Positions 5,894-21,081 of a DNA stretch of 64,000 nucleotides are shown here, in pieces. Position numbers and translations under genes: made by a program. Source of the stretch: a virus; the IMG/VR virus record IMGVR_UViG_3300035130_000101, positions 1 through 64,000 of that record; one strand, 5' to 3'. The first letter of the stretch is position 1; each line of letters opens with the position of its first letter. The notes under the pieces are model-generated. The model was not told the DNA's origin. It saw nothing but the letters and a program-made list of their open reading frames with translations, and did no database searches.

Positions 5894-5895
5894 TC

Positions 5896-7158: not shown

Positions 7159-7205
7159 AATAAACAGTCCTTTTGCTAATTACGTTCATAGATTTTCTAG
7201 GTTGC

Positions 7206-7658
7206 TCATCGCCATACAGAAACATCTGCGGTTGGGTATATTTCACAGGCTTTTAGGTATCTTCTTACAAATTCTACAAGCCCATCATAATCACCCCAAC
7301 CGTTAGATGGATTGAATTGCTTGAACCGTTCGGGGTCGCCCTCAAGTAATGCTAACCCTTTCCGAAGTGGCTCAATCAATTCGCCAGCCTTACTGATATT
7401 GATTTCATCAGGTCGCCATAAATATTGGTATATACCGGCTTCTGAGGCCATTGTGGTAAGATTATGTGTGATATTTGCGGTATAAACTTCTTTGCTATCA
7501 TCGTCGCCAATTTGGGTTATAGCCGGTTCGCACCCTGGGAATTTTTCATTCCATTCATCACGTGAAATCTCTTTTATTGAACCATTTTCACGGATAAAAA
7601 TACCCGACCCAGTCTCGTTCTTTTTATCAGGAAATATTAAGGAAACATCAAGACTCAT
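7206..7658 (-). CDS. hypothetical protein
   Basis: 150-aa ORF, co-oriented with the island. Confidence 0.5.
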   Translation of the reverse strand: MSLDVSLIFPDKKNETGSGIFIRENGSIKEISRDEWNEKFPGCEPAITQIGDDDSKEVYTANITHNLTTMASEAGIYQYLWRPDEINISKAGELIEPLRKGLALLEGDPERFKQFNPSNGWGDYDGLVEFVRRYLKACEIYPTADVSVWR

Positions 7659-7695
7659 TTTTGTACCTTTCCGCCTACAATAATGACATAGAGTG

Positions 7696-8415: not shown

Positions 8416-8420
8416 ATATA

Positions 8421-8430
8421 TCTCAATTCA
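8421..8430. repeat. junction palindrome half-site
   Basis: TCTCAATTCA; 5 nt from ATG 8415. Confidence 0.3.
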
Positions 8431-8528
8431 CCAGTCACCATCATTCATAAGCCTATCGTGGCAGACAAAAAACTGACGATCATTACAATAGACCAGACAA
8501 AATAAGCATATTTCGATGTCACTTTTTC

Positions 8529-8542
8529 TCAATTCAAATTGA
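8529..8542. repeat. junction palindrome
   Basis: TCAATTCAAATTGA; contains the stop codon of the aminotransferase gene (..FNLN*). Confidence 0.55.
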
Positions 8543-9659
8543 AAAAATCTCTAAACTTTTCAACGATGTAGGATAGGTCATTCAGGTTAAGCCCCTGGTG
8601 GCAGCCAATATATAGCCCGTTTCGATTCACCCAATCTGCCACCGGGTAATCGTCCGGCTCCCACAGCCCCTGGTAACACGGCTGCCGAGTCAGCGGCAGG
8701 GCCAGCCTTGATTCAATGCCGTTCTCTGCCAGGAATCGCCGCAGGTTGTTCCTTGTGCCTTCTTGCCGACAAACGAGCGGGTACATCTGAAAAGCGTGTT
8801 CTGAGTGTGACCGGATAGCCGGCAATTGTAGCCGGTCCTCAAGTGACGCTAAATGCTCTGTCAGATAGGCGGCGTTCTCTTGCCGGTGGCTGATAATTTC
8901 CGGTAGATCGTCCAGTTGCGCCAGACCCAGCGCAGCCTCAAGTTCAGTCATCCTAAAGCTATGGCCCACTCGCTTGAAGTCAAATTTGCGCCCAAGCCAG
9001 GTATGATCGTAATGCTGGCCAGTCGGTAGCTCATTAAGGTCAATTCCGTGGTTGACCAGTGACCGCATATAGAGTGCATATTCGGGATTGTCGGTAATAC
9101 CCAGGCCGCCAACTCCGGTCACAAGGATATGAGCCATATAGGTAGAGAAACAAGAAATGTCACCAAACGAGCCAACTGGATAACCAAAGCGGGTGACAAG
9201 CATCGCCTCGCAGGAATCCTCTATGACCTTGATCTTGCTGCCGTAGATAGCAAACGGGGCAACCGTCCGGCTCAACTCATCTATGGCGCTGGCTTGTCCA
9301 AAGATGTGGACCGGGATAATGCACTTGGTATTCTCGTTGATTGCCGCTTCGATCTTGGTGTAGTCAAGATCATAGTACCGGCTATCCACGTCAACCAGTA
9401 CCGGCTTTAATCGCAAGTGCAAAACGACGTTGACCGTAGCCACAAACGTAATAGCTGGAATGATAACCTCGCTGCCGTCCGGCCAGCCGTGCATCTCCTT
9501 TAGCGTCTGCAAAGCCACCAAGAGCGATGACGTGCCGCTATTGGACAATACTCCATACTGGCAATTGTGCATCTGAGCAAAGCGGGATTCGAACTCTCTC
9601 GACATCTGACCGTAGGACAACCGGCCGGTATCTAAAACCTGATTGACCAATTGTTGCAT
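8529..9659 (-). CDS. DegT/DnrJ/EryC1-type PLP-dependent sugar aminotransferase
   Basis: LSYGQMSREFESRFA...NSGTSSLLVAL... is the typical family pattern. Start taken at the internal ATG 9659, 1 nt after the upstream stop; the track ORF extends to 9749. Confidence 0.8.
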   Translation of the reverse strand: MQQLVNQVLDTGRLSYGQMSREFESRFAQMHNCQYGVLSNSGTSSLLVALQTLKEMHGWPDGSEVIIPAITFVATVNVVLHLRLKPVLVDVDSRYYDLDYTKIEAAINENTKCIIPVHIFGQASAIDELSRTVAPFAIYGSKIKVIEDSCEAMLVTRFGYPVGSFGDISCFSTYMAHILVTGVGGLGITDNPEYALYMRSLVNHGIDLNELPTGQHYDHTWLGRKFDFKRVGHSFRMTELEAALGLAQLDDLPEIISHRQENAAYLTEHLASLEDRLQLPAIRSHSEHAFQMYPLVCRQEGTRNNLRRFLAENGIESRLALPLTRQPCYQGLWEPDDYPVADWVNRNGLYIGCHQGLNLNDLSYIVEKFRDFFNLN

Positions 9660-9660
9660 T

Positions 9661-10485
9661 TTAGGCGTAGCTTGGAATGTCCCAAGTGCTATTTTGTTCA
9701 AGGCTCTTCTCCTGAAAAGCCCAGGTAGAAGGCCGGAACAGGTTGTCACCCGTCATAATAATTTGTTTGCCGGTATATTCTTGCATAACAGACCTGATGT
9801 CATTCAGGTTTTTTATCCTGGTTTCAAGTTCTTCATTATCTGATTTCTCAATACCAAATGAGGCCGATTCATAAGCAAGACCGTTACATTCGATATAGCG
9901 GAACCGTTCAGCAATGAGAAGCCATTCAGCGTCAACGCCTGCGCCGTTTGCTGTTGATTCAGCTACAATTTTTTGAGCCACTGGTCTGGAAAGCCCACGA
10001 GAGCCTGATAGTATATCTACATTGTAGCCAAAAAGACGATTGCACTCCAACTCGGTAATTCTTTGCAATTCGGGGTGGGTATTAAATGCCTGTTCGGTTC
10101 GGCCAAAAACAACGAAATCGTATAGAGGAATGTGATTTACTACACTTCGCAATTCATCGGGATAATTGATTATCCAGTAAAGCACTCTGTCAAAATCGCA
10201 ATAATGAAAATGATCGGCTTGAGTTTGCAATCCGAAATTGATACTCATTCTTCGAGCCTGAGCCAAGCCACCCATAGCTTGGACTTTGGCAGCCTCACCT
10301 AGTAAGTCAATTACCTTACCGTCTGTAGTATCCGTCACGACAACAACTATGCTGTCATATATTCGCTGCAATTCAGGCAGATATAATGAGATAGCGTCGA
10401 TGAGCTTTCCATCAGAATCGTGAAGGGCTGATAAAAGAGTGGTCACAATAAAGCCCTTTTTACTACTTCTTTTGTCTGTCCTCAT
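9661..10485 (-). CDS. hypothetical protein
   Basis: 274-aa ORF within the sugar island; no motif recognised. Confidence 0.55.
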   Translation of the reverse strand: MRTDKRSSKKGFIVTTLLSALHDSDGKLIDAISLYLPELQRIYDSIVVVVTDTTDGKVIDLLGEAAKVQAMGGLAQARRMSINFGLQTQADHFHYCDFDRVLYWIINYPDELRSVVNHIPLYDFVVFGRTEQAFNTHPELQRITELECNRLFGYNVDILSGSRGLSRPVAQKIVAESTANGAGVDAEWLLIAERFRYIECNGLAYESASFGIEKSDNEELETRIKNLNDIRSVMQEYTGKQIIMTGDNLFRPSTWAFQEKSLEQNSTWDIPSYA

Positions 10486-10673
10486 TTATTACATCGATAT
10501 AGATAGTGATAGTTTATGTAGTTGAATTTAGTATTTTTGATTTCTTCTTTAGAGGGAACGTCTGAAACCCAATCGTCAATCTCTTGCCAATTGTGCCTAC
10601 ACTTTTTCACGAATAGAGATCTTATCTTGTTCATAGCGCCCCAATGTATCTGAGTAGCACAATTACGACCCAA
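10482..10673 (-). CDS. hypothetical small protein
   Basis: 63-aa ORF; overlaps 10631..10819, so one of the two may be spurious. Confidence 0.3.
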   Translation of the reverse strand: MGRNCATQIHWGAMNKIRSLFVKKCRHNWQEIDDWVSDVPSKEEIKNTKFNYINYHYLYRCNK

Positions 10674-10819
10674 ATAAAAAATGCTGTAAGTCCCAGGCCG
10701 ATTATCAGGGATATTACTCCACCGACAATTGAGGCTATTTTTATCCGCCTGAAATCTCTATCGAAATCATCTGACATTTTTTGAAACCGTTTATCAAAGT
10801 CACTCATAATCCAAACCAA
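10631..10819 (-). CDS. small transmembrane protein
   Basis: 62 aa with a C-terminal hydrophobic helix (IASIVGGVISLIIGLGLTAFFIWVVIVLL). Confidence 0.4.
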   Translation of the reverse strand: MVWIMSDFDKRFQKMSDDFDRDFRRIKIASIVGGVISLIIGLGLTAFFIWVVIVLLRYIGAL

Positions 10820-11531
10820 ACCTTTCCTTCAATTCCTGTCTGTCTGTCATCTTCAGTCCCGGTATCCCGCTCCGGTCGTGATAGTTCCATTGCCCCCGTT
10901 GGATGACGTTGACGTGCCGCAGCGGAGCCTGCCGGGTGCCGAGTACCAACCAATCGGGGTGGTTGTTTACCCTGCCAGCCATCTCTATCTGTTGGGCCGT
11001 TTCACCGGGGACAAGCACCTCTCTCAGTAAGTCTCGCCGCCACATTCCACCCCAGAGTGACATATGGTACTGGCTATTCGGGTCGCTCTTAATCAGGTCG
11101 AGATAGCCCAGAGTATCATAGGTATTGTAGCCCCAATAGAACTGATTGTAGCCTTCTGGTGGCGTGCCTGAGTAAAGCCGCTCATCAGCCAGGTCGAACT
11201 TGAGAACGTTGGTATACTGGTGCATATAGTCGTAGATCATCTGGACGGCTTTGGTGTCAACGGGACGGGAAAGAAAATAATCATCGAGCATAAGGATAAA
11301 GACTTCATCGGCTACGGTGTCCAGTACCTTTATGAGTGCATCGCTCCATTTGTTGGCCGGGTAATTTTTGAATTTGCCGATAGAGTAGAAATTGGAATCA
11401 CACTCAATTCTGGTATAGCCGCAAGTCAGGCGAGTATGCTCAAGTCCGTTAAAATATTTGGTCCACTGATACCAAAAGGGGGGAATAGTCCACTGCTGAT
11501 TGTCGCTGGTCATTACAATTACTTGTATCAT
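10800..11531 (-). CDS. hypothetical protein (possibly glycosyltransferase-like)
   Basis: 243 aa. MIQVIVMTSDN...FILMLDDYF is weakly GT-A-like. The guess rests on context only. Confidence 0.5.
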   Translation of the reverse strand: MIQVIVMTSDNQQWTIPPFWYQWTKYFNGLEHTRLTCGYTRIECDSNFYSIGKFKNYPANKWSDALIKVLDTVADEVFILMLDDYFLSRPVDTKAVQMIYDYMHQYTNVLKFDLADERLYSGTPPEGYNQFYWGYNTYDTLGYLDLIKSDPNSQYHMSLWGGMWRRDLLREVLVPGETAQQIEMAGRVNNHPDWLVLGTRQAPLRHVNVIQRGQWNYHDRSGIPGLKMTDRQELKERFGLDYE

Positions 11532-11594
11532 CGGTTCCTCTACAAAAAATATCCGGGTCTCTGTATGCCGGATGGGATTAAATGTTGTTATCGG

Positions 11595-12494
11595 TTACGT
11601 TCCTTTGTTTCCTCTATACCATTCTATCGTTTGCCTTAACCCATCTATCAGCGACGTTTCCGGCTGCCACCCTAACAGTGACTTAGCTCGGCTATTATCA
11701 TATAGCCGTCTTTTCTCACCAGTAGGCTTTGTCTTATCCCAGGCGACGGTGCCATCGAAACCGGTCAACTCAACCAATAAATCAACCAACTCAGCAATCG
11801 ACACCTCTTGATTAGACGAGATATTGACCGGCTGACCCACGTCGGTATCAATGAATTTGGACAGGGCCTTTGCCACGTCACCAGCATACAGAAAATCTCT
11901 AGTAGCCTTGCCGTCGCCCCAAATGGTAACAACCTCTTTGGCCTCGATAAACTTACGTACCAAGGCAGCTATGACGTGGCCGCTTTCTCCAAAGTTGTCT
12001 CTTGGACCATACATATTAACCGGAATAGGATACTCAAAAGCCATCCCGTACTGCTCGCGGCAGGCTTCCAGTTGCGCCAGGGCCACCCGCTTACTAATGC
12101 CATATGAACCATTAGACTTTTCAGGATAGCCACTCCACAGGTTGCCCTCTTTCATCGGCAATAGCGGAAAGTCAGGATAAGCGCAAACCGAGGAGACAAA
12201 CACGAACTTCCCGACGCCAATCTCAGCACACTTCTGGATAAGCTGAGTATTCATCATCACATTGTCATAATAGATGCTGGCCGGGTTTGCCATATTGTAG
12301 GAAATGCCGCCGACGTTGGCCGCTAGGTGGTAGACGATATCGGGCTTGACAAAATGATCGAAAAGGGCATCAATATGATCATGTTGCCGCAGGTCATAGG
12401 CGCGGGATAGAACGGGGTAAACGTCGTGGTCACTTAAGAGGGGGTAGAGATGGCTGCCAAGAAAGCCAGCGGAGCCGGTCAGGAGTATCTTCAT
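11595..12494 (-). CDS. NAD-dependent sugar epimerase/reductase (SDR, GDP-fucose-synthase-like)
   Basis: Rossmann motif LLTGSAGFLGSHL and catalytic YGISK (YxxxK). Start taken at ATG 12494, with a GAGGA RBS and an ATGA overlap with the upstream stop. Confidence 0.8.
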   Translation of the reverse strand: MKILLTGSAGFLGSHLYPLLSDHDVYPVLSRAYDLRQHDHIDALFDHFVKPDIVYHLAANVGGISYNMANPASIYYDNVMMNTQLIQKCAEIGVGKFVFVSSVCAYPDFPLLPMKEGNLWSGYPEKSNGSYGISKRVALAQLEACREQYGMAFEYPIPVNMYGPRDNFGESGHVIAALVRKFIEAKEVVTIWGDGKATRDFLYAGDVAKALSKFIDTDVGQPVNISSNQEVSIAELVDLLVELTGFDGTVAWDKTKPTGEKRRLYDNSRAKSLLGWQPETSLIDGLRQTIEWYRGNKGT

Positions 12495-12673
12495 TGCCGT
12501 TTCCTCATTGCCAGCCATACCTCATCGGCCGTCGGCTTGCGCACTTTTTCCGCCGCCAAGTAGGTTTGCAGAATCCAGACGATATGCGCCGTCTTGCTAC
12601 GCTGTGCTTTTTGGGCGCTGGCGGTTAGTTGGGTATTGAGTTTATCGGGTAAGCGTAGGGTGAAGCGGGTCAT
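12491..12673 (-). CDS. ribbon-helix-helix (CopG/Arc-like) protein
   Basis: MTRFTLRLPDKLNTQLTASAQKAQRSKTAHIVWILQTYL shows the beta-alpha-alpha pattern. Confidence 0.65.
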   Translation of the reverse strand: MTRFTLRLPDKLNTQLTASAQKAQRSKTAHIVWILQTYLAAEKVRKPTADEVWLAMRKRQ

Positions 12674-12679
12674 TTTTTC

Positions 12680-12693
12680 TCAATTTCGGTTGA
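12680..12693. repeat. junction palindrome, variant
   Basis: TCAATTTCGGTTGA; 6 nt after stop 12700 and 6 nt before ATG 12673. Confidence 0.5.
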
Positions 12694-12699
12694 TATTTT

Positions 12700-12999
12700 C
12701 TAGCCGTAGCCGTAGCCGTCGCCGGAGCCGTAGCCGTAGCCGTCGCCGGAGCCGTAGCCGTCGCCGGAGCCGTAGCCGTCGCCGTAGCCGTCGCCGTCGC
12801 CGGAGCCGTAGCCGTCGCCGTAGCCGTCGCCGTAGCCGTAGCCGTAGCCGTCGCCGGAGCCGGAGCCGTAGCCGTCGCCGGAGCCGGAGCCGTAGCCGTC
12901 GCCGGAGCCGGAGCCGTCGCCGGAGCCGTAGCCGTCGCCGTAGCCGTCGCCGGAGCCGGAGCCGTAGCCGTCGCCGTAGCTAATCAATGCGCTGTCCAC
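12700..12999 (-). CDS. Gly-Tyr-Ser-Asp repeat protein (low complexity)
   Basis: 99 aa made almost entirely of GDGYGS-type repeats. Its start overlaps the stop of 12984..13274. The mirror plus-strand frame encodes RS repeats. Confidence 0.55.
   Translation of the reverse strand: MDSALISYGDGYGSGSGDGYGDGYGSGDGSGSGDGYGSGSGDGYGSGSGDGYGYGYGDGYGDGYGSGDGDGYGDGYGSGDGYGSGDGYGYGSGDGYGYG
12703..12975. repeat. imperfect tandem repeats (GCCGTAGCCGTCGCCGGA-type, 6/18-bp units)
   Basis: Visible run of GCCGTA/GCCGTC/GCCGGA hexamers encoding GYGDGS repeats on the minus strand. Confidence 0.85.
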
Positions 13000-13274
13000 T
13001 CTGGAACCTCCTCAATCGACTGCCGGGCTTTCGGCGTACAATCCAAAATCTCAATGGCTTCGGTCAAAGTGACCAAAGTGACAGCGACGGGGAATTTGCA
13101 ATCATTGGGCTTGCTTACTCCCCGAACGGCCAACTCAGATAATGAGGCTGCCCCTGACCAGTACCACAAGCGTCGGGCATTGGTCAAAACGACTTCCTTA
13201 CCATTCCGGCTTTCCAATTCGCCTGCAAAAACACCGGCGCTGTACGTTCTGACAATTACATACTTCTTGTCCAT
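12984..13274 (-). CDS. conserved phage protein of unknown function
   Basis: 96 aa with YSAGVFAGEL...NARRLWYWSGAASLSELA. AGGGAG RBS; preceded by a promoter and the palindrome motif. Confidence 0.6.
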   Translation of the reverse strand: MDKKYVIVRTYSAGVFAGELESRNGKEVVLTNARRLWYWSGAASLSELAVRGVSKPNDCKFPVAVTLVTLTEAIEILDCTPKARQSIEEVPEWTAH

Positions 13275-13306
13275 TGTTCACTCCCTTTCTATCTGTCTGA
13301 TTATTT

Positions 13307-13320
13307 CAATTGCGGTTAAT
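13307..13320. repeat. junction palindrome, variant
   Basis: TCAATTGCGGTTAA; lies between promoter 13347-13376 and ATG 13274, so it is transcribed. Confidence 0.55.
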
Positions 13321-13346
13321 ATTTCTATAGGAAACAAGCCTATCTC

Positions 13347-13376
13347 ATTATACACCACCTTGACACCATTTGTCAA
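13347..13376 (-). promoter_or_regulatory. sigma70-type promoter
   Basis: On the minus strand: TTATTGACA, 18-nt spacer, TATAAT. Confidence 0.55.
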
Positions 13377-13380
13377 TAAG

Positions 13381-13414
13381 AAAAGCCGCCGGCCCCGATA
13401 CACCGACGGCTTTT
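13381..13414 (-). terminator. rho-independent terminator after the recombinase-like gene
   Basis: AAAA GCCGCCGG ..loop.. CCGACGGC TTTT. The stem is perfect, with one G-U pair, in the minus-strand RNA. Confidence 0.55.
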
Positions 13415-13487
13415 CCTTCGATCTTTGCAGCGCCCGGCGCGCCTGAACGTGGACGTTGCTAATAGGAAGTGAACCGATTCCATTGTA

Positions 13488-14144
13488 TCACAGGTGGTTA
13501 CGTGTGTCAACACATCTCATATACCTGGCAATTGTGCCGGACTTGAGACCGGTTAGCTCGCGCACTACTGCCGGTCCGTCATCCTCTAATCGGTGAACAA
13601 TGCCAGACTGATAGATCGTCATCGCTGTTACCGGCTTAGTGATTTCCTGTTCCCTAGCCACCCTTTTGATATGGTTAGTCAGCGTAGACACGGACGTATG
13701 TCCACCTCTGGACACTGACTTTTTAACAATATCTCCCGGTCTGGTCAAGTTATGATAAGCCTCTCTGGCTAAAATCTGATAAAGTAATGGTAAGCCAGTT
13801 ATAACCGCCTTTACCTGCCCCCGGCTTATAGTCTCTACCAGTTTTGTTTTGTGCAGAGTTGATACCATCCGAACTTCGACGGGCTTTCCAATGTCATCAA
13901 AAAACATACTAATCGCCCGCTTCGCTTGGTTGGTAGTAGATCGGGAGTATTCGCCGGGCCGGACCATCCAGGCCAAATACTCGTCAATATGCCATTGCTC
14001 AAGCTCGGATAATTTGATCGGAGCGTGAAATTTGGCAAGCTCGATTATCCAGCGGGAATAGAGCCGGACGGTATTTTTGGACAGGCCCGCAAAGGCGCTG
14101 TCTAATTTTTGTTGTAACTCATTTGATGGTTTCATATTTGACAT
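13488..14144 (-). CDS. short tyrosine-recombinase-like protein (SAM-like N-domain; catalytic signature incomplete)
   Basis: 218 aa. The N-terminus (TVRLYSRWIIELAKFH...IDEYLAWM...YSRSTTNQAKRAISMFFD) looks like an integrase core-binding domain. LTRPGDI (box I Arg) and ARY (Tyr) can be placed, but HxxR and the Lys hairpin cannot be found by eye. Confidence 0.6.
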   Translation of the reverse strand: MSNMKPSNELQQKLDSAFAGLSKNTVRLYSRWIIELAKFHAPIKLSELEQWHIDEYLAWMVRPGEYSRSTTNQAKRAISMFFDDIGKPVEVRMVSTLHKTKLVETISRGQVKAVITGLPLLYQILAREAYHNLTRPGDIVKKSVSRGGHTSVSTLTNHIKRVAREQEITKPVTAMTIYQSGIVHRLEDDGPAVVRELTGLKSGTIARYMRCVDTRNHL

Positions 14145-14165
14145 TATAGCACGTTTTGGTATAAT
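14138..14165 (+). promoter_or_regulatory. sigma70-type promoter directed into the cassette array (Pc-like)
   Basis: TTGACA (14138-14143), 16-nt spacer, TGG-TATAAT (14160-14165). The -35 overlaps the recombinase-like start codon. Confidence 0.65.
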
Positions 14166-14193
14166 ATCAAGTAAGATATAGTGTTATGATATT

Positions 14194-14202
14194 GTTAGAT
14201 TG
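14194..14202 (+). repeat. attI-like core box GTTAGATTG
   Basis: Matches GTTRRRY and lies 2 nt before ATG 14205. Its complement (8/9) opens the first repeat at 14404. Confidence 0.5.
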
Positions 14203-14204
14203 CT

Positions 14205-14411
14205 ATGGTTTATCTTGGTTACGTTTACGATGAAATGTCATACTGCCCGGAGTTGGTTGGTGTGTTTGCCACCAAACCTGCCGCTTACCGTGCAGTTAGA
14301 AAACGGATCAAAGAGATGATTATAGAGCATTGGGAGTGTTGGGCGGGAGGACGATACCGCCACGATTACCATTTTACGTGGCGTATTAAACCCGTTGAAC
14401 CAGCAACCTAA
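14205..14411 (+). CDS. cassette ORF 1 (68 aa, unknown)
   Basis: ORF track. The stop TAA lies inside box CAACCTAAC. Confidence 0.6.
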   Translation: MVYLGYVYDEMSYCPELVGVFATKPAAYRAVRKRIKEMIIEHWECWAGGRYRHDYHFTWRIKPVEPAT

Positions 14412-14491
14412 CAACGGCTTACAGCGGACGGATTGACCTGGCCGTTTACATCGACCGCCCTGGCCGCCGCTGAAGCCGGGGCGTTATACGG
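14404..14491 (+). repeat. attC-like site 1 (88 bp)
   Basis: R'' CAACCTAAC, R' GTTATACGG. Arms 14415-14431 and 14464-14478 pair 15/15, with bulged A14421 and A14428. Confidence 0.7.
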
Positions 14492-14521
14492 CACGTTGCC
14501 AACAGAGTCCGGAGTAATTGT

Positions 14522-14896
14522 ATGTGGTACAAAAAATACCCTAAATTAAATTCAGCACTATTCACGTATGAGAATAGTGGCAAGCGGAGCAACGACCCGC
14601 CCCCGTATTCGTTAGTTGAGCGTGGTGGCGAACTGATAGACATTGAAGATAAATATTCGGTGTCGGGCTACAAAATTTTAGGCTACACGGAAAGCCCGCC
14701 GTTCCCGGCAGAAGGGTATCCAGCCGTAGCTGTCCTTTTTGAAAATCAATCGTTTGAAAAAATTTGGTGGCACTATCCCTGTAATGAGCCGTATAACAAT
14801 CAAAATGCAGGGGACGCCCCAAGCTCGATTTTACAGCCGCCTAATCTTGTGGCTCCAAGTCGGAGTAGGCGGCGAACTAATAAAACGCGCCCCTGA
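14522..14896 (+). CDS. cassette ORF 2 (124 aa, unknown)
   Basis: GGAG RBS. The last ~36 codons run into attC-like site 2. Confidence 0.55.
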   Translation: MWYKKYPKLNSALFTYENSGKRSNDPPPYSLVERGGELIDIEDKYSVSGYKILGYTESPPFPAEGYPAVAVLFENQSFEKIWWHYPCNEPYNNQNAGDAPSSILQPPNLVAPSRSRRRTNKTRP

Positions 14897-14914
14897 TTTT
14901 GGGGCGTTAGGCGG
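14789..14914 (+). repeat. attC-like site 2 (126 bp)
   Basis: R'' CCGTATAAC is the exact complement of 14483-14491; R' GTTAGGCGG. Arms 14801-14817 and 14887-14901 pair 15/15, with bulged G14807 and A14814. Confidence 0.7.
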
Positions 14915-14941
14915 ATTGCCGCTAGAAAAGGAGTTGATCTT

Positions 14942-15229
14942 ATGAATGATGTAGATAGGCGACTGATGCAAGACAAACAAGACCAGCTTTTGGCCGTGGC
15001 GAAAAAAGCGATGGTTCAACAGAAAGAAATCAACGAATTGCATCAGGCATTAACGCGAATCGCATCGTACGATACCCCCGACGAGATACGCCAAGACGCG
15101 GCTGATGAATATGGCCTAGATTACGAAGAAGCCTTGGAAATGGCCTATGAAAACATTATCCAGGAGGCCAAATCAATGCTTGGCAAATATCCCCCTAACA
15201 AGCCGGTGGAGCCGACCGGACAATCTTAA
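14942..15229 (+). CDS. cassette ORF 3 (95 aa, acidic, unknown)
   Basis: AAGGAG RBS. The C-terminal ..YPPNKPVEPTGQS is encoded by the left arm of attC-like site 3. Confidence 0.6.
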   Translation: MNDVDRRLMQDKQDQLLAVAKKAMVQQKEINELHQALTRIASYDTPDEIRQDAADEYGLDYEEALEMAYENIIQEAKSMLGKYPPNKPVEPTGQS

Positions 15230-15278
15230 TTTTCAAGACCAGGCCCAGGCCGGCGGCTCACCGGCGGGCGTTAGGCGG
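15191..15278 (+). repeat. attC-like site 3 (88 bp)
   Basis: R'' CCCCCTAAC, R' GTTAGGCGG. Arms 15202-15219 and 15250-15265 pair 16/16, with bulged G15208/9 and A15215. Confidence 0.7.
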
Positions 15279-15303
15279 CTTCGCTGCGAAAGGAACAATC
15301 GAA

Positions 15304-15723
15304 ATGGGTACGTATTGGGATGGGAATGGAAAGTATCAAGAATGGTCAGACAAACTCGAAGATCAAGTCCCTATGTCTGGCCGGGCTGAAAAATTGCACA
15401 TTGATCTAGTGCGTAATATCAGCAATTGTTATTATGACCACTTCAACAATGGTAACTGCAATTGGGGGAACAAAAGCGAACAATTTGCACACATCGAATA
15501 CCACGCCGATGCACTTCACGAAGCAGCACTGGCCGAAGGCATTGAAAATATCCGTAGTTTACTGTCGTCTATTCGTTCCCCGTTGGACGCTGATTTTGCA
15601 AAAAATTTGTTTTACTGCGGCGAAGATGCAGAGGACTTGGAAGAAAATTGGGAAAAGCTGGCAGATATTATTATCGGTTGGGCGTGGAAGGTTGAGCAGT
15701 CTTTACCAGTACCAGCCGCCTAA
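15304..15723 (+). CDS. cassette ORF 4 (139 aa, unknown)
   Basis: AAAGGA RBS. The stop TAA lies inside box CCGCCTAAC. Confidence 0.6.
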   Translation: MGTYWDGNGKYQEWSDKLEDQVPMSGRAEKLHIDLVRNISNCYYDHFNNGNCNWGNKSEQFAHIEYHADALHEAALAEGIENIRSLLSSIRSPLDADFAKNLFYCGEDAEDLEENWEKLADIIIGWAWKVEQSLPVPAA

Positions 15724-15844
15724 CAAAAAATTGTACCCGAATTGCTACTGTTCGTTTCAACAACGGCCACACGCTGGCAATCTCGGTTTAAATTGCGGCT
15801 CTTAACGCCAAGCCGCAATCGGGTAAATTTAGGGCGTTAGCTGG
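15716..15844 (+). repeat. attC-like site 4 (129 bp)
   Basis: R'' CCGCCTAAC, R' GTTAGCTGG. Arms 15728-15745 and 15815-15830 pair 16/16, with bulged G15733 and A15740/1. An inner hairpin lies at 15792-15819. Confidence 0.7.
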
Positions 15845-15870
15845 CTCATTGCCAGTGGAGGCGAGTGGAA

Positions 15871-16059
15871 ATGCTAGAATGTCCTGATTGCAAAATTCCG
15901 TTTGAGGTGGTAAGAATACATCGCCGCCACCAGACTGCTTTTAAAAATATGAATGCCGCTGTGAAATGGTGTCCGTTTTGTGGTCGCCAGCTAACAAAGC
16001 AATTCAAGCGGACTGAGCAACCGTCACAGTCCGATCAATCATTAGAGTCTGCCGCTTAA
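15871..16059 (+). CDS. cassette ORF 5 (zinc-ribbon-like, 62 aa)
   Basis: CPDCK...CPFCG. ATG 15871 with a GGAGG RBS; the track starts at GTG 15865. Confidence 0.55.
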   Translation: MLECPDCKIPFEVVRIHRRHQTAFKNMNAAVKWCPFCGRQLTKQFKRTEQPSQSDQSLESAA

Positions 16060-16075
16060 TTGCGGCGTTAGGCGG
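15987..16075 (+). repeat. attC-like site 5 (89 bp)
   Basis: R'' CCAGCTAAC is the exact complement of 15836-15844; R' GTTAGGCGG. Arms 15999-16013 and 16051-16063 pair 13/13, with bulged C16005 and A16012. Confidence 0.7.
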
Positions 16076-16080
16076 ATAAA

Positions 16081-16293
16081 ATGATAGAAAACTACATTTG
16101 TATCGAACAACGGAAACGGATTGGTAGTATCGTTTACGACGATGTCATACTCGAACTAGAACGATTTGCAGATAGGATAGAAATAGAGATGTCGAACAGT
16201 GACGATCACAATGTACATATTAGGATAAATATTGAGCAGGCAAAAAAGTTAGCTGAGTTCATAGGCGGTTTTGTTGGTATGGTATCCGCTTGA
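16081..16293 (+). CDS. cassette ORF 6 (70 aa, unknown)
   Basis: The ATG is 5 nt after box GTTAGGCGG, which can serve as the SD. Confidence 0.55.
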   Translation: MIENYICIEQRKRIGSIVYDDVILELERFADRIEIEMSNSDDHNVHIRINIEQAKKLAEFIGGFVGMVSA

Positions 16294-16359
16294 CTTTACG
16301 CCGCAGGGTCGTTCACCCGCCACGGCCCTGGCAGCGGCACAACGGCGGGTGTTAGGCGG
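16286..16359 (+). repeat. attC-like site 6 (74 bp, degenerate)
   Basis: R'' CCGCTTGAC (7/9), R' GTTAGGCGG. GC-rich imperfect hairpins lie between them, with no clean two-bulge pattern. Confidence 0.4.
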
Positions 16360-16364
16360 ACAAA

Positions 16365-16580
16365 GTGGCAAAAATATATGGTGTGACAAAAATACATTTT
16401 CTGGCAGAGCCATTAGTGATAATTGGCGAGAAAAAGATGACGTTGGAAATGGCAGAACGTTGGCTTGCCAGAGAACACGGTGAAAATGCAGAAGTAGACG
16501 CAATCAATTGCACATCAATATATGATGACCGTGATTATTATATTTTGGGGATTGTAGAAAATAGCAACCAATCCGCCTAA
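16365..16580 (+). CDS. cassette ORF 7 (71 aa, unknown)
   Basis: GTG start 5 nt after GTTAGGCGG. The stop TAA lies inside CCGCCTAAC. Confidence 0.5.
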   Translation: MAKIYGVTKIHFLAEPLVIIGEKKMTLEMAERWLAREHGENAEVDAINCTSIYDDRDYYILGIVENSNQSA

Positions 16581-16701
16581 CAAATCGTTCGTAGCGAATT
16601 GCTAACCTTGTTTTTTATTGTGGTCGGTTGGGGCCACTACCGCACATTAACCCGCAGGCATTGTGCCAACCCGCAATCGCCACAACTCAAGCGTTAGGTG
16701 C
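16573..16701 (+). repeat. attC-like site 7 (129 bp, paralog of site 4)
   Basis: R'' CCGCCTAAC, R' GTTAGGTGC. Arms 16587-16602 and 16673-16686 pair 13/14, with bulged C16590 and A16597. Confidence 0.65.
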
Positions 16702-16705
16702 TTGT

Positions 16706-16993
16706 ATGAAAAATCCACGGTGGTTAATGGTAACAAGAAAAATCACAGATGGTTTAGTGCTGGTTTGGTCGCCGGAATGCAATGAGCAATTATGGGCGTT
16801 AGGTAACAGGCCAGGATATAAACATCACAATTGCGCTATCTGTAATAGAGAAATTCCAAAAAATACAGAAAAAATGTACAGACCTGTGGGAAATCCACGC
16901 AATAGAATGTGCAGAATTTGCCAAGACTGCGCTTTGATGAACCACCCACCTAACAAACATTTGCAGCCCGACCCCGACAGCCGCCGCAAATGA
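16706..16993 (+). CDS. cassette ORF 8 (Cys-rich zinc-finger-like, 95 aa)
   Basis: ATG 4 nt after GTTAGGTGC. HHNCAICN...CRICQDC. The C-terminal ..HPPNKHLQPDPDSRRK is encoded by the attC-like arm. Confidence 0.55.
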   Translation: MKNPRWLMVTRKITDGLVLVWSPECNEQLWALGNRPGYKHHNCAICNREIPKNTEKMYRPVGNPRNRMCRICQDCALMNHPPNKHLQPDPDSRRK

Positions 16994-17068
16994 GACGGCT
17001 GCGGGCGTGGGCACATCGGTATCAAGCGAGCCGCCGCAGGCGGGCGGCTGAAATGTGGCGTTATATGG
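16946..17068 (+). repeat. attC-like site 8 (123 bp)
   Basis: R'' CCACCTAAC, R' GTTATATGG. Arms 16957-16968 and 17046-17056 pair 11/11, with bulged G16963; pairing is irregular beyond that. Confidence 0.6.
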
Positions 17069-17080
17069 CTAGGAGGAAAA

Positions 17081-17329
17081 ATGATCTACGACGGACTGCT
17101 GGTTTACGGTGACAATTTCAATCCAGGTGCCGTTTGTCCGCATTACCTGCCAGAGAGCCAATACACTTTTACGTGGTATCGCAACGAGGACGGTATCCCG
17201 GTTTTGAGCGGTTACGATCCTAAAGATGATTTGGCTACAGATTGGCTTTGTGTGTGCGGCCACTATGAAACTGGAGGCTGCTGCTGTAGGCACTGTGGCG
17301 CTGAACCGCCGTGGGGCTGTATGTGCTAA
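17081..17329 (+). CDS. cassette ORF 9 (Cys-rich, 82 aa)
   Basis: AGGAGG RBS; CVCGHYETGGCCCRHCGAEPPWGCMC. Confidence 0.6.
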   Translation: MIYDGLLVYGDNFNPGAVCPHYLPESQYTFTWYRNEDGIPVLSGYDPKDDLATDWLCVCGHYETGGCCCRHCGAEPPWGCMC

Positions 17330-17332
17330 CAG

Positions 17333-17442
17333 CCATATAACAAACATTTGCAGCCGACCGCCCAGGCTGCGGATAACGAAGATCAAGCGCAATCATAGTC
17401 ACATTTCACCGTGGGCGGCGGCTGAAATGTGGCGTTACTTCT
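17333..17442 (+). repeat. attC-like site 9 (110 bp, paralog of site 8)
   Basis: R'' CCATATAAC is the exact complement of 17060-17068; R' GTTACTTCT. Arms 17344-17364 and 17412-17430 pair 19/19, with bulged G17350 and A17357. Confidence 0.7.
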
Positions 17443-17443
17443 T

Positions 17444-17689
17444 ATGCAAAACAAGCAAAAATATTCAGCGCGTCAAATTATACCACCTCAGTTAACAGAT
17501 ACCGATAAAGAGCGATTTATCACAAATAGCAAGGCTCATATGTTGTTCGACCTGGCTATAAAACTGGCTGACAAAGGCGACGAACTTACAATTGAGGTAA
17601 AATTTGAGGAATATAAAACCAAACACTATGACACACCCTGGCTGAATGAAAGCCGGGTTGATATGGTTGCGTGGGTAACAACCCCGTAA
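17444..17689 (+). CDS. cassette ORF 10 (81 aa, unknown)
   Basis: ATG 17444; the track starts at GTG 17429, inside site 9. Confidence 0.5.
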   Translation: MQNKQKYSARQIIPPQLTDTDKERFITNSKAHMLFDLAIKLADKGDELTIEVKFEEYKTKHYDTPWLNESRVDMVAWVTTP

Positions 17690-17738
17690 CCTAACAAATC
17701 ATTCAAGCGGAATTGCTGATCTTGGTTTTTATTGCGTC
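17682..17738 (+). repeat. attC-like site 10, left half only (truncated)
   Basis: ..GTAACCTAACAAATCATTCAAGCGGAATTGC.. matches the left arms of sites 5 and 7. No right arm or GTTRRRY box follows. Confidence 0.45.
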
Positions 17739-17746
17739 AGTTATAG

Positions 17747-17775
17747 TTGCTAAATAACAGTATTGGAGGTATAAT
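17747..17775 (+). promoter_or_regulatory. sigma70-type promoter
   Basis: TTGCTA, 17-nt spacer, TATAAT. Confidence 0.55.
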
Positions 17776-17780
17776 AACCG

Positions 17781-17860
17781 TGTTCAGGATAGCATAACTC
17801 AATGGGCGCATTTTTTATTTAACGTGGCCCCCATCGGCTAAAAGAGTGCTATCCTGAACA
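17781..17860 (+). promoter_or_regulatory. structured 5' leader (14-bp perfect inverted repeat)
   Basis: TGTTCAGGATAGCA (17781-17794) pairs with TGCTATCCTGAACA (17847-17860). It starts at about the predicted TSS, upstream of 17905..18300. Confidence 0.4.
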
Positions 17861-17904
17861 AATAGCGCCGGCCGGTGGGGGTCTCCATTTTTAAGGGAGG
17901 AATA

Positions 17905-18300
17905 ATGATATACTTTAGATCAAGAAAATATAAGTCTACCTTTAATTGTTCCTTTATGGCAAAAGATGGCCAAAACATTGATGATTTGTCAAGGTGTCAG
18001 ATAGGCGATTCAGTATCAATTATATTCGACATTCCGCAGAAAATTGCAGACATGGTAAGTGAGAGTGGGCTATCTGATAGTGCTGGAATACGCATTTACA
18101 AAGATAATAATACTTATTCAGTTCATATTCCATTCAAGATAATCGAGCGTGATCATTCGTTCTCTTGGAATGATATCGGCACTTTACAAACCCTAGGAAC
18201 ATCAATTTACGTTGAGGCAAAAAGCGGATACTGGGAAGATATGTTCAAATGGATATGCCTGAATGAAAGACCAATATGGGCAGTGGAAGATGAACAATGA
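17905..18300 (+). CDS. hypothetical protein
   Basis: AAGGGAGG RBS before ATG 17905. ATGA overlap with the endonuclease gene. Confidence 0.55.
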   Translation: MIYFRSRKYKSTFNCSFMAKDGQNIDDLSRCQIGDSVSIIFDIPQKIADMVSESGLSDSAGIRIYKDNNTYSVHIPFKIIERDHSFSWNDIGTLQTLGTSIYVEAKSGYWEDMFKWICLNERPIWAVEDEQ

Positions 18301-19493
18301 AACGTATCTTCACTATCGAACAGGACAAAGAAGTTGCCGAGCTATACCAGCAGGGAATGTCATCTATCAAGCTCGCCGAGCAATATGGCGTTGACAAGTC
18401 AACGGTCTTGGGGGCGTTGAAACGGCAAGGGATAAGGCGGAGAACTAATAGAGCCTTTACCAGAGGTGAAGAGCAACAGATAGCTCACATATATCAAGCT
18501 GGACACAAGATAACGGACATTGCAAAAGCGTATGGCTATGATTTCACTACTATTAAAAATGCCCTCAAGAGACAAGGAGTTAAGCAAGGGGATGACCGGT
18601 TTACTTTTTCGGCCACACAAGAAAAGGAGATACTTGAAGAGTACAAATCTGGAAACAAGATGGCCGATATTGCAAAAAAATATCAGGCATCCCCAGGAAC
18701 AATATCTAAAGCGATAACCAATCAGGGTGGCAAGGTCAGAGACGGACGCATCTTTACTGATAGCGAAGAAGTAATGATAGGCCACATTTACGAATCCGGC
18801 TTTAGCCCTCAGCAAATTTCAGTGGCGTATGGCGTATCACGTAGCGCAATTATAAATACAATAGATAGACGTGGGATTGATAAGCGCCCTAACAGAAAAA
18901 ACTTTTTTGACGAAAAGGCTTTTGATAGTCTTGACAGTGAAGCCCCCCTATATTGGCTTGGCTTTTGTTATGCCGATGCCAATGTAACTAACTATGAACT
19001 CAGGATTGGACTTGCTATCAAGGATATAGATCACTTGCAGTTACTGGGAGATTTTATGCAAAGTGATAAGACGGTAAAAAAATATCGAAATAATACAGCT
19101 TGTCAATTGAGCTTTGCTAGCGTGTATCTTACAAAAAGGTTGCACTCATTAGGATTGATAGCAGGTAGAGGTGAATTTGAAAAGCTCGTGCCGCATATTC
19201 CCGATAATCTGGCTCATCATTTTATTCGCGGATATCTTGACGGTGACGGCTGCATTACTGAAAGTAATTATCTTATCAGATTTCTAGGGCAAGTTGATAT
19301 ACTGGAATGGATTAGAAATATCCTTCATAGTAATGCAGGTGCTAGCAATTCCGTTTCTATTAAAAAACGGAGGGGCATCTACAGTATTGGATGGGGAGGC
19401 CGATATCAAGGTCCTAAAATAATAGACTATCTTTATAAAAATGCGACTATATATCTCGATAGAAAAAGAAAAGTAGCAAGAAGTTGGAAATAA
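18297..19493 (+). CDS. LAGLIDADG homing endonuclease with four N-terminal HTH repeats
   Basis: Motifs LYWLGFCYADANV and HFIRGYLDGDGCI. There are four ~49-aa repeats (F(T)..E...Y..G....IA..YG....TI..AL.RQG). Confidence 0.8.
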   Translation: MKRIFTIEQDKEVAELYQQGMSSIKLAEQYGVDKSTVLGALKRQGIRRRTNRAFTRGEEQQIAHIYQAGHKITDIAKAYGYDFTTIKNALKRQGVKQGDDRFTFSATQEKEILEEYKSGNKMADIAKKYQASPGTISKAITNQGGKVRDGRIFTDSEEVMIGHIYESGFSPQQISVAYGVSRSAIINTIDRRGIDKRPNRKNFFDEKAFDSLDSEAPLYWLGFCYADANVTNYELRIGLAIKDIDHLQLLGDFMQSDKTVKKYRNNTACQLSFASVYLTKRLHSLGLIAGRGEFEKLVPHIPDNLAHHFIRGYLDGDGCITESNYLIRFLGQVDILEWIRNILHSNAGASNSVSIKKRRGIYSIGWGGRYQGPKIIDYLYKNATIYLDRKRKVARSWK

Positions 19494-19495
19494 AA

Positions 19496-19526
19496 AATAG
19501 GACTGAGGACAATCCTCAGTCCTATT
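19496..19526 (-). terminator. rho-independent terminator after the capsid gene
   Basis: 14-bp stem AATAGGACTGAGGA/TCCTCAGTCCTATT with a 3-nt loop. A U-run follows on the minus-strand transcript. Confidence 0.65.
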
Positions 19527-19545
19527 AACATAACAACTTTACATA

Positions 19546-21081
19546 TTATAACCAAACGGCATATTTGCTGCCGGTGCTTCTCAGTGAAATTCCGCCGTCC
19601 ACCCAGTGGGCGCTCTCGGCGTCGGCTTCTCTCAGGTGACTGATCGGCGCATACTTCACGTTTTGGAGCCTTCCAGCCAATTGGGGCGTCCGCAACACCA
19701 CCCGCTGTTCCGTCTTGCACAGCCCCTTGAGACAGAAGTTGATATCGTTCCAGGCCCAGGCGAACACGCCCCGGTCGGTCCAGAACCGCTGCACGTTGCG
19801 AATGAGATTGAACTCGGTCATTGCCTGCCGATAATCTTTGTGCTGGCGGTAAGTGACGGGGAAGTTGCCGGTCGTCCGCAGCGGAACCATATAGATGTCG
19901 CTGGCGTACTCGCCCGGATCGAGACTGGCCGGCGTGTTGGTGTTGTTCTGTTCGTAGATGCCGGTGTCCTCAATGACCTTGTACGTCCGGCCATTGACGG
20001 CAATCTGGCCCATCACCCGCATATTGTCCCGGTCCTGAATGTTCGAGCGACCGTCCAGCGTCACTCGCGCATTGCTGGCCGCAGCGATGGCAATGGCTAC
20101 CTGGTCGGTATTGTAGGCAATCGGCCATACCCTGGACATCTCATACCACAGTTGAGGCCGCATCGCAAAGACCCACTCAGCCGGTAGCATCCCGGTATCA
20201 GCCGCCAACGTGTAGATGAAATACTCCATCATCGATATCTGGTTGACCAGGGCCGTGGCATTGGAAGCCACATCAGCATAGGCAAAGTTGTCGATATAGC
20301 TATCCAACGACGGACAGGCAGTGTTTGTGTCGGCGTCAACCTGGCCCGTGGCAATCTGGTTGTCAAGGCCGGGGAACTCTTTATAACCACCGCCGATGTT
20401 GTTGTTGGCCGGGCTGCCTTGCCACATATGCGTGGTAAGAAGCCGCTCCAGCCGCACCCCGACGCTGACCATCTGGGACATCGTTACCAGGTTCAAAATC
20501 TGATTGGGATTCAGGCCGCCGGGCATCAACCCGGCTTGTGTTCCCATATTCAGATTCATCCCGTGTAGTACCAGGTCCGAGAAGTCACCCCGGTTGATAC
20601 GTAGACCAAGTTCGTCCATTTCGATAGTTTCAGTCGAACGGGCCACCCGCCCGAATTGCGCCGTCAGGTTACAGGCTTTCAAGTAGCCCGTGGGCGCATC
20701 CTCGCAGGGCGTCGCCGGTTCGTTGCCGATGTCATCCGAAAAGCCGGACAAAGCCCCAAAGCGCGGATCTTCGTCATTGTTCGGCAGAAGCGGCAAAACG
20801 GATGAAATGCCGTGTGGCTGGACGTGGGTCGAGATGATGTCACGTTCCAAACCAAGAGTGGAGAAGGTGCCGCGCAAGCCGTGAAGCTTTTGAGCAGTCA
20901 TCGTGGTGGCCGGCGCTTTGGTAATCAGGTCGTTGACCATTTCCATTGCCTTGACCTGAAATTCCTTGTCGCTGTTAGTCTGGCCGATCTGGTTGGCCGC
21001 CAGCGCCGCCAGAAGCGCCTGATTTTGCTGAATCAAGCCCATCAGTTGTTCAGAACTCATTGTGTCACTCATTGCCGCCAT
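19546..21081 (-). CDS. putative major capsid protein
   Basis: 511 aa. It lies directly downstream of the scaffold-like gene in the head module and is followed by a strong terminator. The call rests on position and size only. Confidence 0.55.
   Translation of the reverse strand: MAAMSDTMSSEQLMGLIQQNQALLAALAANQIGQTNSDKEFQVKAMEMVNDLITKAPATTMTAQKLHGLRGTFSTLGLERDIISTHVQPHGISSVLPLLPNNDEDPRFGALSGFSDDIGNEPATPCEDAPTGYLKACNLTAQFGRVARSTETIEMDELGLRINRGDFSDLVLHGMNLNMGTQAGLMPGGLNPNQILNLVTMSQMVSVGVRLERLLTTHMWQGSPANNNIGGGYKEFPGLDNQIATGQVDADTNTACPSLDSYIDNFAYADVASNATALVNQISMMEYFIYTLAADTGMLPAEWVFAMRPQLWYEMSRVWPIAYNTDQVAIAIAAASNARVTLDGRSNIQDRDNMRVMGQIAVNGRTYKVIEDTGIYEQNNTNTPASLDPGEYASDIYMVPLRTTGNFPVTYRQHKDYRQAMTEFNLIRNVQRFWTDRGVFAWAWNDINFCLKGLCKTEQRVVLRTPQLAGRLQNVKYAPISHLREADAESAHWVDGGISLRSTGSKYAVWL

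Follow-up and report, generated by a model that had tools for sequence, protein, structure and literature searches.

What built a tandem row of small genes and hairpin repeats in the genome of a tailed phage, and which enzyme put them there? The question is raised by a 64,000-nt stretch of a virus genome (IMG/VR record IMGVR_UViG_3300035130_000101, positions 1 to 64,000; the whole stretch is called "the window" below), where ten units lie on the plus strand at 14195-17738, each consisting of a short open reading frame (ORF) followed by a GC-rich imperfect palindrome that opens with a box of the form xxRYYYAAC and closes with GTTRRRYxx. A preliminary description of this array had pointed out that the box opening a repeat is the complement of the box upstream of the same ORF, and had read this as the signature of circular integron cassettes. 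Comparing sequences across loci, we show here that the array was built by recombination at the G|TT of attC-type sites and that cassettes have moved between elements. The best explanation overall, which we hold to be very probable, is a phage-borne integron-type platform (14138-17738) with a dead derivative of the integron integrase IntI ("mini-IntI") and catalysis by a host IntI acting in trans.

In integrons, crossover at G|TT leaves the last six bases of an integrated attC in the next cassette, and the inverse core of a cassette matches the core at its own 5' end. When the box 5' of each ORF is compared with the box opening the repeat 3' of that ORF (same-unit pairing), units 1-9 score 8, 9, 8, 9, 9, 7, 9, 8 and 9 out of 9. 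These values, including the five perfect pairs (14483/14789, 15270/15716, 15836/15987, 16351/16573 and 17060/17333), the 8/9 matches of units 1, 3 and 8 and the 7/9 match of unit 6, are those of the preliminary description, and every box it quoted was found at the position it gave. Pairing the box that opens a repeat with the box that closes it (same-repeat pairing) yields 5, 7, 8, 7, 7, 7, 7, 7 and 5 (mean 6.7). By exact enumeration for units 1-9, only 24 of 362,880 permutations reach the observed same-unit total (P = 6.6e-5), and sampled permutations over all ten units give P = 7e-6; in a register test within the window, the mean score is 8.1 at offset 0 and 6.6-6.9 at every other pairing offset. 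Because both the permutation and the register tests favour same-unit pairing, the complementarity is not a by-product of most boxes being GTTAGGCGG. Instead, it is the idiosyncratic variants TATAC, AGCTG, TATAT and GGTG that carry the signal, and these follow the box upstream of the ORF rather than the closing box, as had been proposed (e.g., CCATATAAC at 17333 is closed by GTTACTTCT at 17434). An internal GGGCGTTAGG at 16795, within the ORF of cassette 8, was considered as a hidden junction and rejected, having no upstream R''/L'' and a poorer box match.

The same rule governs related elements. We located related loci (designated by L numbers) through the gene adjoining the array and bacterial loci through an attC pattern scan, and read seven further arrays. 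Across the eight arrays pooled (34 units), same-unit pairing averages 8.5/9 with 24 perfect matches, vs. 6.2/9 with one perfect match for same-repeat pairing, and in 29 out of 29 informative units, i.e., those in which the two candidate boxes differ, the box opening the repeat is better complemented by the 5' box of its own unit. The within-array permutation test is highly significant (P < 1e-5) and remains so for the seven arrays without the window, where further variants co-vary in the same way (GTTGGGCGG, GTTAGGCCG, GTTAGGGCT, GTTATACCG and GTTATGTTG). The comparison of same-unit with same-repeat pairing suggested in the preliminary description is thus significant in the window and in seven other arrays. 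Such box co-variation is the textbook footprint of integron recombination, and it tells nothing new about the mechanism.

Individual cassettes were also found with different neighbours, a search likewise suggested beforehand. Cassette 2 of the window (14484-14906) is cassette 4 of phage L058 (IMGVR_UViG_3300042731_008413), with ~88% nucleotide and 88% amino acid identity, and the homology begins at GCGTTATACGG, covers the ORF and the complete attC and extends to the next GTTAGG. The upstream neighbours are unrelated. Similarly, the promoter-bearing cassette 1 of phage L114 recurs in L089, a contig of a Caldilineaceae metagenome-assembled genome (MAG), 3' of a different cassette; the two sequences become similar precisely at G|TTATAT, one being preceded by an attI and the other by an unrelated attC end. 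A third shared pair (61% amino acid identity) consists of L001 cassette 1 and L113 cassette 4, both starting with GTTATGT. In the window/L058 and L114/L089 pairs, the variable TTRRRY(NN) moves with the ORF downstream of the junction, and therefore behaves as the integron model requires. The L114 and L089 copies keep the R'' box GCATATAAC in the shared cassette and differ in the remainder of the attC, the phage copy having an extra 60-aa ORF, which suggests attC replacement or fast attC divergence. Two further viral loci deserve mention. L077 (IMGVR_UViG_3300038436_000079, 2570-6010) has an array of this attC type with six cassettes or more but no mini-IntI, starting immediately after a 79-aa ORF, and its cassette 5 is multi-ORF with its own consensus promoter. 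L006 (IMGVR_UViG_3300024429_000003, 90-900) has short (~70-nt) attC-like repeats between small ORFs, with the box rule holding in one unit (GTTATATTTT vs. AAAATATAAC, 10/10) and a match to a tyrosine-recombinase C-terminus at 3219-3395. As a loose 16-base attC pattern gave mostly chance matches in viral contigs, only contigs with several matches or arrays were retained.

The anatomy of the repeats, together with the G|TT crossover, supports their assignment as attC recombination sites. Canonical attC sites have extrahelical bases at position 16 (usually G) and 23 or 24 (a conserved T), with a 6-bp stem separating the first of the extrahelical bases from the last, and recombine in the bottom-strand AAC triplet, i.e., the top-strand G|TT (Nivina et al., 2016; PMC5027507); we further looked for an unpaired spacer of ~5-6 nt, a variable terminal structure and a length of 57-141 bp. 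All nine complete sites of the window end with GTT(A)NNN, and eight of the nine start with NNNNAAC (attC6 has GCTTGAC), although several boxes (TATAC, AGCTG, TATAT) depart from strict RRRY. The L''/L' arms form duplexes of -16.1 kcal/mol in cognate and -8.3 kcal/mol in non-cognate pairs (P < 1e-5), and since cognate arms pair better, the inner arms co-vary within a repeat and the outer boxes across the ORF. Bulges were analyzed in 24 attC sites from five loci (the window, L001, L058, L077 and L099), of which 22 show single-base bulges at 16/17 and at 23/24 (numbering from the first base of R''), on the '' arm only and 6 bp apart. The distal bulge (23/24) is an A on the top strand and a T on the bottom strand in 23 out of 23 sites. 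Site lengths are 70-126 nt, with a variable centre. The purine skew reported for attC sites of mobile integrons was not seen in the 24 sites, and an Rfam scan of 13000-19600 returned only two sub-threshold chance matches (Rfam holds no attC model).

At the head of the array, two predicted sigma-70-type promoters (14138-14170) overlap fully and face to face, each -35 element being the reverse complement of the other's -10 region. Such an overlap predicts mutually exclusive transcription of mini-IntI and the cassettes, and the minus-strand promoter would start near the ATG at 14135, predicting a leaderless or near-leaderless mini-IntI mRNA. Seven loci (the window, L001, L058, L110, L112, L113 and L114), with associated proteins only 28-75% identical, share the promoter arrangement and, next to it, a conserved GGTAAT(G)TTATxATAT(T/A)G. 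In these loci, conservation stops at the G of GTT and cassette-specific sequence follows directly. This G|TT junction looks as an attI junction should, and the array head would thus comprise an attI preceded by a Pc-like promoter.

The gene read away from the array on the minus strand encodes mini-IntI. Its product matches PF13495 (N-terminal SAM-like; 9.5e-14) without any PF00589, and its best NCBIfam match is the integron integrase family TIGR02249, over the first 125 positions only and at 46 bits vs. a cut-off of 265. VchIntIA bound to folded attC (2a3v) is the sole PDB sequence match and the best match in both sequence and structure: both domains align (query 22-118 with IntI 19-118, query 143-190 with IntI 235-282), mini-IntI lacks ~95 residues (IntI ~141-234), and the VTCHTLRHS of IntI aligns to VTAMTIYQS. 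The same gap appears in an alignment with a 332-aa IntI from Caldilineaceae (L099). An AlphaFold (AF2) model of mini-IntI (pLDDT 87) has two all-helical domains, the C-terminal one being reduced, and Foldseek places 2a3v on top (E 1e-7), ahead of XerA, lambda Int and Cre. Searched with HMMER against 1.84 billion representatives, the whole mini-IntI profile is matched by ~18 to 20 clusters, all of 183-236 aa, and the weaker matches beyond this rare family are ordinary recombinases, matching in the N-terminal half only.

Of the active-site set R-K-H-R-H/W-Y expected of a catalytic tyrosine recombinase, the family keeps only the tyrosine (Y205, at least 90% of members): conservation is lost at the first arginine (LxPPG), the stretch that would hold the lysine is missing, and in most members HxxR has become (A/S)xx(Y/H/R/Q) and H/W has become L, with the L058 copy keeping the second arginine (TLRQS). 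The IntI-specific insertion and the beta-hairpin lysine are absent as well. Because residues of the catalytic core are deleted or substituted, mini-IntI is predicted to be catalytically dead rather than a working integrase. Evolutionarily, dN/dS between the window and L001 copies is low (0.13, and 0.10-0.12 for the halves taken separately), as expected for a maintained protein under purifying selection and not for a pseudogene. Seven members have readable flanks (the window, L001, L058, L110/L111, L112, L113 and L114), and all seven lie beside the promoter-attI segment, divergent small ORFs and phage-type genes. An attC array is present in all six members whose upstream DNA could be read, L112 being known from gene calls and its promoter-attI segment only. 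A profile search for related loci, built on a four-member alignment, found none in metagenome contigs and, in viral contigs, only two already known. In a limited full-text literature search, we found no account of a truncated IntI family that is conserved and linked to a promoter-attI module in phages; the platform with mini-IntI is thus unusual, whereas the box signature is ordinary.

The element resides in a tailed-phage genome, the window encoding a terminase large subunit, a tape measure protein, a Gp37-like tail protein, a replisome organiser, a DnaC-like ATPase, helicases and a methyltransferase. No second tyrosine recombinase was found in the 64 kb, either by tblastn with an IntI1 sequence or by Pfam, PHROGs or NCBIfam searches of 28 of its larger ORFs. 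Related modules lie between structural genes in L001, L110 and L114. Between the window and L001, DNA similarity is confined to the mini-IntI-attI module (76% nucleotide identity) and one attC, at different genome positions, and therefore points to a mosaic module moving between phages. Scanning GTDB genomes with the attC pattern, for which we estimate ~0.03 chance matches, retrieved 19 loci, 17 of them in Chloroflexota MAGs (Caldilineaceae and Anaerolineae), including a 568-kb contig and a 6.1-Mb Anaerolineae chromosome; Chloroflexi are indeed known to carry integrons (Cury et al., 2016; PMC4889954). One of these loci, L099 (Caldilineaceae MAG, JAGRCP010000015.1), has its full-length 332-aa IntI, 52% identical to an IntI1 sequence, beside an attI and the same attC type, and it includes a cassette whose attC arms are nearly those of attC7 in the window and whose boxes match 10/10. 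From the shared attC type, one shared cassette and the MAG binning, we infer that these phages infect Chloroflexota and share the cassette pool of their hosts.

Taken together, the box statistics, the moved cassettes, the attC anatomy and the IntI-derived gene with promoter and attI-like junction at the array head uphold the integron reading of the preliminary description, which had recognised neither the phage setting nor the short, defective nature of the neighbouring integrase gene. In the proposed mechanism, the platform runs from a Pc-like promoter through an attI-like site to ten single-ORF cassettes that have no promoter and are closed by an attC. Cassettes entered as circles by IntI-type recombination between the G and TT of the GTTRRRY core, integration gave at least the last six bases of an attC to the next cassette, and the 5' end of a cassette in this way pairs with its own inverse core; the box statistics and the cassettes shared between elements show this part. 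As the phage carries an IntI derivative without a catalytic core, strand exchange would probably be performed in trans by the IntI of its Chloroflexota host, given that this attC type is also the one found in chromosomal integrons of Chloroflexota; the phage would thus probably rely on a host integrase to capture genes. With its intact N-terminal domain, mini-IntI would probably bind attI and/or folded attC and act there as a regulator, recruiter or blocker, and the overlapping divergent promoters would make its expression and that of the cassettes mutually exclusive.

Several observations weigh against this explanation. Unit 10, which we added to the nine units of the preliminary description, is an exception to the box rule (boxes 17434/17687, 5/9), with a repeat cut off after ~50 nt, and attC6 is degenerate. 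Where canonical sites usually have a bottom-strand G at position 16, the bulge at 16/17 is mostly a C here; the predicted unpaired spacer is below the canonical size, its two arms having 2 and 4 nt (an energy-based prediction, which may over-pair), and the greater stability of the bottom strand that is reported for attC sites of mobile integrons is not seen (-0.14 kcal/mol, 13 of 24 sites). The order of the ten cassettes is identical in two independent samples, and turnover in this lineage is therefore not fast; no recombination event, excised circle or different cassette order was observed. The link to a host depends on the attC type in common and on MAG binning, and L089 could be a mis-binned phage contig. 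Finally, that a host IntI would recognise the phage attI is itself something we infer.

Could the repeats be something other than recombination sites, namely intrinsic terminators, repetitive extragenic palindromic (REP)-like hairpins or terminal inverted repeats of miniature transposable units? They are GC-rich imperfect hairpins between ORFs, and one scores as terminator-like on the minus strand. However, terminators and REPs do not predict an outer box that co-varies across the ORF with the end of the previous repeat, a point already made in the preliminary description and seen here both in the window and in other arrays. The homology of shared cassettes also spans the whole repeat to the next G|TT without stopping at an inverted box, the bulges sit where attC sites have them, and an IntI-derived gene and attI adjoin the array, which leaves this possibility a negligible probability. 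An array of true attC sites might still be an inert relic, i.e., a host integron fragment gained by illegitimate recombination, its intI decayed and both the array and the short gene without function. The loss of the catalytic residues and the identity of the array in two samples would fit, and phages with captured pieces of host integrons are described in a survey of phage genomes (PMC9892861). Yet both halves of the short protein are under purifying selection (dN/dS 0.10-0.13), the family is diversified but always 183-236 aa long, and the same overlapping promoters and attI recur in seven out of seven members with readable flanks, six of which show an attC array. Moreover, the module sits at different positions of otherwise unrelated phage genomes, and the arrays beside the conserved attI are wholly different in content. 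A relic is thus quite improbable.

If the platform is functional, mini-IntI might itself be the recombinase, either with an active site of non-canonical make-up or as a subunit whose tyrosine serves a partner in trans. This would accord with the near-universal equivalent of the catalytic tyrosine, with the second arginine of the L058 copy, and with the absence of any other recombinase among those searched for in the window, but it is hard to reconcile with a lysine and first-arginine region that is deleted or not conserved, with the HxxR and H/W substitutions of most members, or with the lack of PF00589 signal and of the IntI-specific insertion, and we consider it very improbable. That insertion is said, in the description of the 2a3v structure, to contact the extrahelical bases in VchIntIA. 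Mini-IntI could alternatively be an antagonist, dominant-negative on attI or attC, which would freeze the phage array or stop the host from reshuffling its defence cassettes during infection. An intact DNA-binding domain on a dead catalytic domain is what such a protein should look like, the Caldilineaceae integron L099 carries a prokaryotic Argonaute (pAgo) defence cassette, and the window array is stable between samples; what this leaves unexplained is that six of the seven copies lie beside an attI with differing cassettes, which some integrase inserted. An antagonist in place of a helper is unlikely; such a role is compatible with a platform served by host IntI rather than exclusive of it.

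Table 1. Features of the integron-type platform in the window. Box scores are same-unit matches out of 9; z, fold z-score; promoters and attI are predictions.
Feature	Position	Strand	Description
Mini-IntI gene	13488-14135	-	215-aa IntI derivative (218 aa if read from ATG 14144)
Pc-like promoter	-35 14138-14143, -10 14160-14165	+	Reads into cassettes; TTGACA-16-TATAAT, 12/12 consensus plus extended TG
Mini-IntI promoter	-35 14170-14165, -10 14148-14143	-	TTGATA-16-TATAAT, 11/12 consensus
attI-like site	14166-14194	+	Crossover between G14194 and T14195
Cassette 1	14195-14483	+	ORF 14205-14411 (68 aa), attC 14406-14489; box 8/9; bottom-strand fold z = -3.75; bulges 16, 23
Cassette 2	14484-14906	+	ORF 14522-14896 (124 aa), attC 14791-14912; box 9/9; also at L058 position 4
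Cassette 3	14907-15270	+	ORF 14942-15229 (95 aa), attC 15193-15276; box 8/9; fold z = -3.9
Cassette 4	15271-15836	+	ORF 15304-15723 (139 aa), attC 15718-15842; box 9/9; attC type as L058 attC1
Cassette 5	15837-16067	+	ORF 15865-16059 (64 aa, zinc ribbon), attC 15989-16073; box 9/9, AGCTG variant
Cassette 6	16068-16351	+	ORF 16081-16293 (70 aa), short degenerate attC 16288-16357, R'' GCTTGAC; box 7/9
Cassette 7	16352-16693	+	ORF 16365-16580 (71 aa), attC 16575-16699; box 9/9
Cassette 8	16694-17060	+	ORF 16706-16993 (95 aa), attC 16948-17066; box 8/9
Cassette 9	17061-17434	+	ORF 17081-17329 (82 aa, Cys-rich), attC 17335-17440; box 9/9, TATAT variant; z = -3.74
Unit 10	17435-17738	+	ORF 17444-17689 (81 aa), truncated attC 17689-~17738 (R''-L'' half only); box 5/9; distal array end

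Among the individual sites (Table 1), attC6 folds no better than shuffled sequences (z = -0.45) and has no canonical bulges, whereas the arms of attC7 are nearly identical to those of one attC in L099 and one in L001. The repeat of unit 10 is of attC7 type for ~45-50 nt, then diverges and does not fold. Cassette ORFs often end within their attC (14789-14896, 15191-15229, 15716-15723 and 16573-16580): the stop codon of cassettes 4 and 7 is the TAA of the CTAAC inverse core, and the ORF of cassette 2 reads through nearly the whole attC. Searches of the ten cassette ORFs against Pfam, PHROGs and PADLOC gave no significant families, only a weak zinc-ribbon match and a weak Lar-like (restriction-alleviation) match, both for the product of cassette 5 (phrog_6422, 1.4e-4, for the latter). 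In L058, the first array cassette (2349-3029, minus strand) codes for a protein of the Mom family (PF25680, E 1.3e-11); in phage Mu, Mom is a DNA-modifying protein that shields the DNA from restriction. Phage arrays may thus carry counter-defence genes, i.e., the Mom-like gene of L058 and the Lar-like cassette 5 of the window. On the bacterial side, the first cassette of L099 (171-3220) is a 3.1-kb two-gene anti-phage system made of pAgo (PADLOC PDLC02395, E 3.9e-270; Piwi) and Aga, a helical restriction-endonuclease effector (DpnII-MboI nuclease).

Downstream of the truncated attC10 lie a promoter-like site (17747-17775), a perfect 14-bp inverted repeat (17781-17794/17847-17860), a 141-aa ORF (17875-18300) and a 398-aa ORF (18297-19493). 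The latter has about six helix-turn-helix repeats, the only part matched by Pfam, and, by eye, a LAGLIDADG-like C-terminus (YLDGDG). An insertion of homing-endonuclease type may have truncated the array. On the other side, beyond mini-IntI, a highly repetitive stretch (12594-12999) translates into a (G/D)-Y-G-S-G repeat protein on the minus strand (12700-12999) and an R/S repeat on the plus strand, and adjoins a DUF6948 gene (12984-13274). Further upstream, a sugar-modifying cluster (1312-12518) comprises a multi-domain glycosyltransferase, a nucleotidyltransferase, an FkbM methyltransferase, a DegT aminotransferase and an NAD epimerase. In the unrelated phage contig L110, mini-IntI likewise has a cluster with glycosyltransferase and epimerase genes at its side (13057-18954).

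How does this platform relate to known systems? Sedentary chromosomal integrons, such as the Vibrio cholerae superintegron or the Chloroflexota L099, share with it the divergent gene on the intI side, the promoter and attI, the same-orientation and mostly promoterless single-ORF cassettes of unknown function, the homogeneous attC types, the RYYYAAC/GTTRRRY ends, the extrahelical bases at 16 and 23/24 and the G|TT crossover. Unlike them, the element in the window is phage-borne, has a 215-aa defective integrase derivative and completely overlapping promoters, and holds only ten cassettes. By the operational definition it is a cluster of attC sites lacking an integron integrase (CALIN), with nine complete and one truncated attC and no catalytic IntI, though with an attI, a promoter and an IntI-derived gene: a complete integron sensu IntegronFinder has, no farther than 4 kb from the attC sites, an IntI that carries PF00589 and the C-terminal insertion specific to IntI (Cury et al., 2016; PMC4889954), whereas here the adjacent protein has no PF00589 and no other recombinase was found in the window. 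CALINs and integrons have been described in bacteriophage genomes, and IntI1 was shown to recombine phage attC sites (Qi, Rajabal, Ghaly, Tetu and Gillings, 2023; PMC9892861). As far as the accessible part of that account goes, phage CALINs are likewise attC clusters in phage genomes, including virulent ones, with cassettes mostly of unknown function; they are defined by at least two attC sites, that part describes no conserved attI, Pc or IntI-derived gene with them, and the complete phage integrons it presents are pieces of host integrons in temperate phages. In contrast, a platform of the type seen in the window, with mini-IntI, overlapping promoters and attI, recurs in several unrelated uncultivated phages, with 1-10 cassettes seen in the available DNA. 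Truncated intI pseudogenes (delta-intI1, or those near CALINs; Cury et al., 2016; PMC4889954) also place a non-catalytic integrase-derived ORF at the head of an attC array, but these are decaying and match the C-terminal IntI profile, whereas mini-IntI is intact, conserved in size and under purifying selection, having lost the catalytic core and kept both termini.

Overall, these data document cassette traffic with exact G|TT breakpoints among unrelated phages, and also between phages and contigs that were binned to Chloroflexota, a phylum in which integrons have received little attention, as well as a small conserved IntI-derived family that has lost catalysis and is still tied to a promoter-attI module. 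If a host integrase does act in trans, the dead integrase would make a tractable model for non-catalytic subunits in tyrosine-recombinase synapses. It is tempting to speculate, and we do so only tentatively, that this lineage of Chloroflexota phages keeps its own platform and outsources catalysis, the dead mini-IntI marking attI and folded attC sites and cooperating with host IntI (e.g., by filling non-cleaving positions of the synapse), and in this way draws cassettes, possibly counter-defence genes (Mom-like, Lar-like), from a pool that holds host defence such as pAgo. The integron cassette pool holds anti-phage defence systems, and if host IntI acts in trans, phages would be direct participants in that pool.

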